Counted from the stretch's first letter, positions 53,639-54,426 are shown. The stretch is 64,000 nucleotides of DNA from Rickettsiales bacterium (GCA_046348705.1 JAXMDS010000004.1:9755-73754); one strand, 5' to 3'. Notes: a model not told the origin generated them from the letters alone. Numbers and translations: made by a program.

Positions 53639-53930
53639 TTAAAATAAATATTAGAATTTTTTCTAAATATATATTTAATGCTATATTAATTAAGTACCCT
53701 ATTAAGTTAAAATATATTAAAGAAATATTTAAATAAAAATAATAATTTATAGTATATCGATTAAATAAAATAATACATTAAATTTTATATTAATTATATT
53801 TAATATAAATATAAAAAACTTCATAATAAGTTAATGTTATGATGTCATAGCGAGCTTCATTAGAGGCGAGCATAAATGTTAATTTGAGTCTCATTAGTAT
53901 CCCCCCAATATAAATTTAATTATGAGTGCT

Positions 53931-54426
53931 AATCTTTAACCCGCCGCCAGGCGCGAGCCCTACAAGATAAGAATTAAAAGCAAATGCATTAAAAGCGAGC
54001 GTTAATATAAGATAATCTTTAACCCGCCGCCAGGCGCGAGCCCTATAAGATAAGAATTAAAAGCAAATGCATTAAAAGCGAGCGTTAATTATAAGATAAT
54101 CTTTAACCTGCCGCCAGGCGCGAGCCCTACAAGATAAGAATTAAAAACAAATGCATTAAAAGCGAGCGTTAATTATAAGATAATCTTTAACCGCTGCCAG
54201 GCGCGAGCCCTATAAGATAAGAATTAAAAACAAATGCATTAAAAGCGAGCGTTAATTATAAGATAATCTTTAACCCGCCGCCAGGCGCGAGCCCTATAAG
54301 ATAAGAATTAAAAACAAATGCATTAAAAGCGAGCGTTAATTATAAGATAATCTTTAACCAGCCGCCAGGCGCGAGCCCTACAAAAGATAAGAATTAAAAG
54401 CAAATGCATTAAAAGCGAGCGTTAAT
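53931..54426. repeat. GC-rich 83-84 bp tandem repeat, 6 units, non-coding
   Basis: The unit is AATCTTTAACCCGCCGCCAGGCGCGAGCCCTA(C/T)AAGATAAGAATTAAAA(G/A)CAAATGCATTAAAAGCGAGCGTTAAT(T)ATAAGAT. Units start at 53931, 54014, 54098, 54182, 54265 and 54349. No ORF of 60 aa or more exists on either strand. A degenerate partial copy lies at 53845..53930. Confidence 0.95.

Follow-up and report, generated by a model that had tools for sequence, protein, structure and literature searches.

A six-copy, 84-bp tandem array between convergent genes of a Rickettsiales bacterium is probably a young minisatellite

In a 64,000-nucleotide contig stretch from a Rickettsiales bacterium (GCA_046348705.1, JAXMDS010000004.1:9755-73754; hereafter the window, with positions counted from its first letter), the gap between an MnhB-like membrane protein gene and gltX carries a G+C-rich tandem array of six units of about 84 bp. 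On balance, the evidence favours the reading that this array is a young, probably neutral minisatellite of the variable-number tandem repeat (VNTR) type, produced by slippage or unequal recombination. A preliminary description of the same DNA had offered three candidates, namely a phased protein-binding array (nucleoprotein, partition or iteron-like), a multi-copy structured RNA and a young satellite. The last is the best fit among the three, given the tandem-repeat load of the window, a second array derived from uvrA, the variation of the units at G/C sites, and the negative results of the RNA, coding and copy searches.

Tandem Repeats Finder (TRF) resolves a single array of 6.0 copies with a period of 84 bp (a period of 167 bp scores equally well), 95% matches, 1% indels and a score of 899–909. 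The unit boundaries were set by splitting the array at TAATCTTTAACC, and the aligned units have a mean column identity of 96%. The array makes up 504 bp of the 896-bp mnhB–gltX gap, which is the longest intergenic gap of the window; it starts 291 bp after the stop codon of the MnhB-like gene and ends 101 bp from that of gltX, and the two genes are convergent and face the array-bearing gap. These results bear out the preliminary description in placing the array in a 3′–3′ position (Pfam assignments and strands of the open reading frames, ORFs), in the few point differences that it saw between units, in its claim of a G+C outlier core, and in all 14 positions that it listed for the hexamer GCGAGC (12 in the array, plus 53850 and 53866), which are exactly reproduced. 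Its six head-to-tail units are likewise reproduced, but the array proper begins at 53930, and its start at 53845 takes in two hexamers that do not belong to the array.

Each unit contains a 20-nt core of 85–90% G+C, which is present in 6/6 units with 0–1 mismatch. The six cores are the only 20-nt stretches in the 64 kb with at least 16 of 20 G+C, and no further copy of the core was found in the window, even allowing 3 mismatches. The G+C content is 21% for the window, 13.5% for its non-coding DNA and 38–39% for the array, compared with 17% and 6% for the immediate array flanks. The A+T-rich parts of the unit match the composition of the genome itself.

The tandem-repeat load of the window provides the first line of evidence for a minisatellite. 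With settings 2/7/7 and a score of at least 50, as in Riegler et al. (PMC3287509), TRF reports 64 rows at 46 loci, covering 6.8% of the bases, versus 1–9 rows, 32–364 bp and 0.05–0.6% in Markov order-1 and order-3 simulations of the window; rows scoring at least 150 number 13 in the window and none in the simulations. Values published for the same settings are 6.3% for Ehrlichia ruminantium (the bacterial record at the time), 1.6% for wMel and 0.38% for Escherichia coli (PMC3287509). Many of the arrays in the window fall inside ORFs. The only array of comparable size, 2.9 copies of a 186-bp unit at 37167–37692, consists of tandemly duplicated sequence from the 3′ end of uvrA (its final ~150 nt; ORF 37540–40344, minus strand). 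Two pseudo-copies with broken frames, which include G+C-rich codons, follow the genuine uvrA stop codon, indicating that the duplication process copies arbitrary sequence, G+C-rich motifs included. The repeat load and the uvrA array together indicate that head-to-tail duplication of arbitrary segments is very frequent in this genome. The uvrA pseudo-copies were not used as a calibration of A+T decay; GC-to-AT changes in them roughly equal AT-to-GC changes, and the calibration is unclean because the unit boundaries are imprecise.

The differences between units provide a second line of evidence, as their pattern fits A+T-biased decay together with internal expansion. Specifically, column 13 of the unit is C, T, A or deleted, columns 16 and 34 are each C or T, column 53 is G or A, and the further differences are one T indel and one AA insertion. 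All of the interior substitution columns (13, 16, 34 and 53) have G or C in the consensus and A or T as alternatives, and this confinement of substitutions to G/C sites has a p of about 0.01 (five events; 34 G/C sites of 84). At column 53 the outer units, units 1 and 6, have G, whereas three interior units share A; the outer units also have C at column 34.

The array shows every testable defining feature of the intergenic VNTR class of Rickettsiales: unit size and identity, non-coding sequence, and a genome-wide excess of repeats. In Wolbachia, VNTR-105 and VNTR-141 are intergenic, with periods of 105 and 141 bp, 4–7 copies and 98–99% identity, and their internal short direct repeats and hairpins are thought to trigger slippage (PMC3287509). 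The present array likewise comes from a member of the Rickettsiales, is intergenic, has a long period (84 bp), six copies, 95–96% identity and internal repeats and palindromes, and has no known function. It differs from the Wolbachia VNTRs in that it shares no sequence similarity with them, in that their stems are 9-bp perfect and its junction palindrome is weak and imperfect, and in its core of 85–90% G+C in a 21% G+C genome, a feature without described counterpart. Moreover, copy-number polymorphism has been shown for the Wolbachia VNTRs, whereas the array here is known from one assembly. E. ruminantium combines actively copy-number-variable tandem repeats with long non-coding regions (PMC10710844; PMC3287509, Table 4). 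The two cases are alike in load (6.3% of that genome, 6.8% of this 64-kb window), in having both non-coding and intragenic repeats, and in that expansion and contraction is taken as the presumed driving process; the present organism belongs to a different, deep-branching Rickettsiales lineage.

We propose that a stretch of about 84 bp of the mnhB–gltX spacer was duplicated head to tail, and that the duplicated unit would then have reached about six copies through slipped-strand mispairing or unequal recombination. Short direct repeats (GCGAGC and AAGATAA) and the weak junction palindrome would be plausible seeds for mispairing, in which case the hexamers and the palindrome would serve only as microhomology or hairpin seeds of slippage and not as binding sites. 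Folded as single-stranded DNA, the imperfect inverted repeat at the unit junction gives a weak hairpin of −4.6/−4.7 kcal/mol (z −1.8/−1.6), and 11/200 and 17/200 shuffles fold as well. The array may persist because a 3′–3′ convergent gap carries no promoter and tolerates insertions. Such an array would be selectively neutral, and its copy number would be expected to vary between strains.

The hexamer GCGAGC occurs 14 times in the window, always on the plus strand and always at this locus, whereas shuffled windows contain 1.89 on average and never more than 5. Of the two copies in each unit, the first falls inside the core and the other in the half that is rich in A+T (AAAGCGAGCGTTAAT). The 12 copies in phase are not independent, because they are two per unit in six units, and their phasing is therefore a property of one 84-bp sequence that has been copied six-fold. 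Within this sequence, a half-period (±1) 6-mer repeat arises in 3.3% of shuffled units. The 42-bp half-units are alike in the hexamer alone, their local alignment score being matched or beaten by 33% of shuffles, and they carry different palindromes. Palindromes with 4-bp arms number three per unit versus 0.57 expected (p about 0.02, from a mononucleotide shuffle that ignores the blockwise composition of the unit), and there is a single one with 5-bp arms (p about 0.13); the unit palindromes are near chance expectation. An ancestral 42-bp unit and old, decayed units in the flanks were both considered and rejected, as the local alignments score no better than shuffles.

Several observations weigh against a neutral minisatellite. 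The half-period spacing of the hexamer has a p of about 0.03. Within 570 bp, GCGAGC is embedded in four sequence contexts that are unrelated to one another, two of which lie beyond the array, where 1.9 copies are expected per window. The core is the most G+C-rich 20-mer of the 64 kb, and the G+C content of the array is about three times the non-coding level, while other purely non-coding arrays in the window have 7–22% GC. Substitutions have spared the second hexamer and the core's 3′ part (p about 0.02–0.04, nominal and post hoc). Furthermore, the copy-number variation that defines a VNTR is here a prediction. The VNTR model gives no account of the origin of the G+C-rich core or of the two upstream GCGAGC copies, and these two copies are harder to dismiss than the phasing inside the array.

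A rival explanation is that the array would be a phased protein-binding platform, comprising 12 same-strand GCGAGC at a spacing of about 42 bp, or four helical turns, together with the two upstream copies, and acting in a sopC-like, nucleoid-organising or roadblock role. In favour of such a platform are the 14 hexamers on one strand versus 1.9 expected, two of them in unrelated context outside the repeat, as well as the half-period spacing and the palindrome excess. The core has mutated four times in its 5′ part, but neither its 3′ part nor any hexamer has changed, and the extreme G+C content of the core is kept despite strong genomic A+T pressure. However, the phasing amounts to one coincidence amplified by tandem copying, the half-units have only the hexamer in common, and the upstream hexamers are out of phase with the array. 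The absence of substitutions from the hexamers is not significant on its own (p 0.12–0.18). No related array was found in any collection, and a search for phased hexamers returned unrelated repeats from other phyla. In addition, there is no parA/parB, rep or dedicated DNA-binding gene nearby, and no canonical parS. The sopC centromere of plasmid F consists of 12 tandem 43-bp repeats bound by SopB. The array resembles sopC in having twelve direct repeats of one motif at a spacing of 42–43 bp, but its real unit is 84 bp with two unrelated halves, no inverted-repeat site is shared by each 42 bp, no parA/parB-type operon is adjacent or present in the window, and the context is that of chromosomal housekeeping genes. 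We regard a binding platform as quite unlikely. Slightly less probable still is a more specific form, a docking platform in which a candidate protein of this reduced symbiont would bind all 14 same-strand hexamers, 12 of them on one helical face and within G+C-rich clamps that would resist A+T drift, in a centromere-like, nucleoid-anchoring or transcription-roadblock role.

The gene content of the window bears on the same question. Pfam annotation covered 53 ORFs of at least 90 aa in the window, and among these housekeeping genes and ORFans there is no ParA/ParB, Rep, transposase, RAYT, integrase or Cas protein. Only one regulator was seen in the window, namely an NtrX-like protein (3291–4901), 50 kb from the array. 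Allowing at most 1 mismatch, no DnaA box was found within 2.7 kb of the array; DnaA-box-like sites in the window number 9, versus 17.5 expected, and form no cluster. There is no parS near the array, the only match in the window at up to 3 mismatches (3663) being at chance level, and CtrA (TTAA-N7-TTAA) and GANTC sites are, by eye, absent from the unit. The GC skew of the window tracks gene strand and is uninformative on an origin. Plasmid-type iterons or a replication origin were rejected on the lack of a rep gene and of a nearby DnaA box and on unit length (84 bp versus 17–22 bp for iterons), and a partition site on the lack of parAB in the window and of parS near the array and on the different palindromes of the two unit halves. 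The preliminary description was correct about the 42-bp spacing, but the partner genes, parS and a DnaA cluster that a protein-binding, partition or iteron-like array would call for are absent from the window, and support for a phased protein-binding array is weaker than it had implied.

A second explanation concerns the origin of the unit, which might be an amplified relic of foreign or formerly functional DNA, such as a lost RNA or protein gene, a mobile GC-cluster or repetitive extragenic palindromic (REP)-like element, or horizontally acquired DNA. This explanation is compatible with a minisatellite, in that only the later amplification would be due to slippage. Consistent with a relic, the array has 38% GC and the 90 bp upstream of it 36%, versus 13.5% for non-coding DNA, and the uvrA array shows that gene-derived G+C-rich motifs are amplified in this genome. 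Moreover, in one frame of the minus strand each 28-codon unit is interrupted by just one stop, and in three units GTAG, as read from the sequence, stands before the minus-strand core, an arrangement also found in REP elements. REP elements and the bacterial interspersed mosaic elements (BIMEs) often lie between convergent genes, and GTAG adjoins their G+C-rich part. The GC clusters of yeast mitochondria are palindromic, short and very G+C-rich and lie in A+T-rich spacers (PMC4478555). The array resembles these elements only as a G+C-rich island in an A+T-rich spacer. Unlike REP/BIME elements and mitochondrial GC clusters, which are hairpins dispersed in tens to hundreds of copies, the core is unfolded and confined to one locus of the window, and the units are strictly direct, whereas REPs alternate in orientation. 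A REP/BIME or GC-cluster hairpin element was rejected, the core as single-stranded DNA giving −4.4/−5.6 kcal/mol (z about −0.75), no better than shuffles; neither dispersed copies of the core nor a transposase was found within the 64 kb.

The array contains no ORF of at least 40 aa, only three ORFs of 25–34 aa, and stops in all frames. A coding or pseudogene relic was rejected, as a six-frame Pfam search gives sub-threshold noise only and the C-terminus of GltX is complete in alignment to its closest homologue (P0002), so that gltX is not truncated. A relic of a tRNA or tmRNA, considered because the core ends in ...GCCGCCA, was rejected since ARAGORN is negative even at relaxed thresholds. A 5S rRNA relic, suggested by a 9–10-nt resemblance to the ends of E. 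coli 5S rRNA, was dropped, as it has no Rfam support at E≤10. The flanks are unrelated to the unit, the window contains no RAYT gene, and no donor sequence was found in any collection. Overall, we consider a relic unlikely.

A further rival is that the array would encode a multi-copy structured or processed small RNA. In its favour, where very A+T-rich genomes contain G+C-rich islands, these are usually RNA genes, and a weak sigma-70-like match (9/12 positions) occurs on the plus strand of every unit. However, Rfam (Rfam 15) at gathering thresholds finds only two tRNAs in the window, both away from the array, and even at E≤10 there is no match over 53600–54600. Folding of the whole array gives minimum-free-energy z-scores of −0.5 on the plus strand and +2.4 on the minus strand with nearly empty centroids, and folding of single units in two registers gives z from −0.3 to +1.2. 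The promoter-like matches number 20 versus 14.4 ± 3.9 in shuffles, which is not significant. Thus neither the units nor the whole array shows an RNA family or a fold above shuffles on either strand, and the structured-RNA candidate of the preliminary description is rejected, a small RNA being extremely improbable. A CRISPR array was also rejected, as the entire 84-bp unit repeats without unique spacers and no Cas domain is encoded in the window.

No copy of the unit or core, for which the preliminary description had suggested a search, was found elsewhere in the window or in genome, metagenome, viral, plasmid and phage collections. Specifically, a core-plus-flank pattern gave 0 matches in one genome per GTDB species and in JGI metagenomes, a 25-mer from the second half of the unit gave 0 matches in metagenome contigs, and blastn against plasmids and phages gave none. 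A 17-mer of the core matched four viral contigs once each, at 62–69% G+C, which we attribute to chance. A generic search for four GCGAGC at a 42-bp phase returned more than 120 loci in other phyla and none in Rickettsiales; many are tandem repeats with periods of 14–126 bp, mostly 21 or 42 bp, and the locus of lowest GC (L048) is a histidine-kinase-like coding repeat. Among the nearest GltX homologues, which are 56% and 48% identical (about 43–48% for Orientia and for metagenome-assembled genomes of Rickettsiaceae), the gltX loci of the two nearest relatives (56% and 48%) have different gene neighbourhoods and lack such an array. Within the window, the only k-mer shared with the unit is the 11-mer AGCAAATGCAT, found in the unit (54061–54071) and in a coding repeat (1003–1013). 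This 11-mer is extendable to AGCAAATGCATnAAAA and is shared with the 33-bp coding repeat of ORF 354–3188, probably by chance.

As the array consists of 504 bp of 95%-identical units in a contig assembled from a metagenome, it could in principle be an assembly artefact, either a chimeric join or a wrong copy number or unit order. An independent Logan contig (L128, SRR26348422) is identical (100%) to window positions 52566–53959 and breaks off after the first 30 nt of unit 1, immediately ahead of the column where the units begin to differ. This break would be in keeping with an artefact, but the contig reproduces the junction of unique sequence and array exactly, indicating that the junction is real. 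Furthermore, the unit's A+T-rich portions are composed like this genome, the genes on either side are ordinary ones from the same lineage, and the distinct combinations of variants in each unit allow a unique path through the array. We therefore consider an artefact very unlikely. The figure of six copies comes from a single short-read-type assembly, the Logan contig confirming the junction and not the copy number.

The coordinates of the array, its parts and its neighbours are given in Table 1.

Table 1. Features of the mnhB–gltX gap and of the genes that border it (window coordinates)
Feature	Position	Strand	Description	Basis
Array	53930..54433	.	six 83-86 bp units, head-to-tail; consensus TAATCTTTAACCCGCCGCCAGGCGCGAGCCCTACAAGATAAGAATTAAAAGCAAATGCATTAAAAGCGAGCGTTAATTATAAGA	TRF, unit splitting, alignment
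Unit 1	53930-54012		83 bp	
Unit 2	54013-54096		84 bp	
Unit 3	54097-54180		84 bp	
Unit 4	54181-54263		83 bp	
Unit 5	54264-54347		84 bp	
Unit 6	54348-54433		86 bp	
G+C-rich core, unit 1	53941..53960	+	CCGCCGCCAGGCGCGAGCCC	
Core, units 2-6	54024-54043, 54108-54127, 54191-54210, 54275-54294, 54359-54378			
Twelve GCGAGC, two per unit	53953..54420	+	spacing 41-44 bp, mostly 42	
Imperfect 40-bp inverted repeat, at each unit junction	54076..54115	.	GCGAGCGTTAA...AAGAT-A-ATCTT...TTAACCyGCCGC	
Two upstream GCGAGC	53850-53855 and 53866-53871	+	outside array, 16 bp apart, out of phase with array	
C6 run (G6 on minus strand)	53901..53906	+	between upstream hexamers and array	
34-aa ORF	53790-53894	-	ATG 6 nt from G6 run; between array and mnhB	
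MnhB-like membrane protein gene	53234..53638	+	134 aa	Pfam PF04039, 1e-10
gltX	54535..56055	-	506 aa	Pfam 2e-91; 100% to NCBI MFO1129961.1

Both upstream hexamers and the C6 run fall in a 90-bp stretch of 36% GC (53840–53929) that has no similarity to the 84-bp unit detectable by local alignment. The 34-aa minus-strand ORF spans the two upstream hexamers, which it reads as GCTCGC and in codon phases that differ. No Shine-Dalgarno-like purine-rich motif is present within 25 nt upstream of 27 confident gene starts in the window, indicating that the G6 run is not a typical ribosome-binding signal here; these upstream regions are nearly pure A+T. The ORF is probably spurious, and we treat it as such because the genome shows no Shine-Dalgarno usage.

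Tandem repeats are also seen in relatives and in other genes of the window. The nearest relative by GltX (56% identity; L001, Logan SRR18715512), at 23% G+C, has about 7% tandem repeats over a 5.7-kb contig, and the next (L002 and L003), at 28% G+C, has a tandem-repeat coverage of 1.3–1.6%. Large ORFs without a Pfam domain contain long in-frame tandem repeats (354–3188, 24115–25719, 29937–30668, 33168–34601 and 43876–44811), examples being a 33-bp unit in 9.6 copies at 731–1046 and a 57-bp unit in 3 copies at 33673–33843. Their products are reminiscent of Ehrlichia tandem-repeat proteins and are candidates for surface proteins or effectors.

The gene order of the window has peculiarities of its own. 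Ribosomal protein genes are scattered among unusual neighbours at 22975–23829, 36130–36513, 52373–53122 and 19629–20222; rplL adjoins rplP, an L3-like gene lies downstream of pth, and rpsK-rpoA stands alone. Some proteins far exceed their usual length (S9, 280 aa; SSB, 301 aa; GltX, 506 aa), and the called start of rplI abuts a tRNA-Arg gene (20220–20293). A 231-aa ORF at 7405–8100 encodes a partial glutamine synthetase catalytic domain (profile positions 138–257 of 344) and may be a truncated gene or pseudogene.

On present findings, the array is as yet no more than a curiosity. If it were a docking platform after all, obligate intracellular alphaproteobacteria would have in it a cis element of a new kind. 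The survival of an 85–90% G+C 20-mer six-fold in 13.5% G+C DNA bears on mutation bias and on gene conversion within repeats, and also on possible hidden cis elements in reduced genomes. As a VNTR, the array would have chiefly practical value, allowing strains of an uncultured Rickettsiales symbiont from a deep branch to be told apart at high resolution, and it would be a sign that runaway tandem duplication, best known from E. ruminantium, recurs in other lineages of the Rickettsiales.

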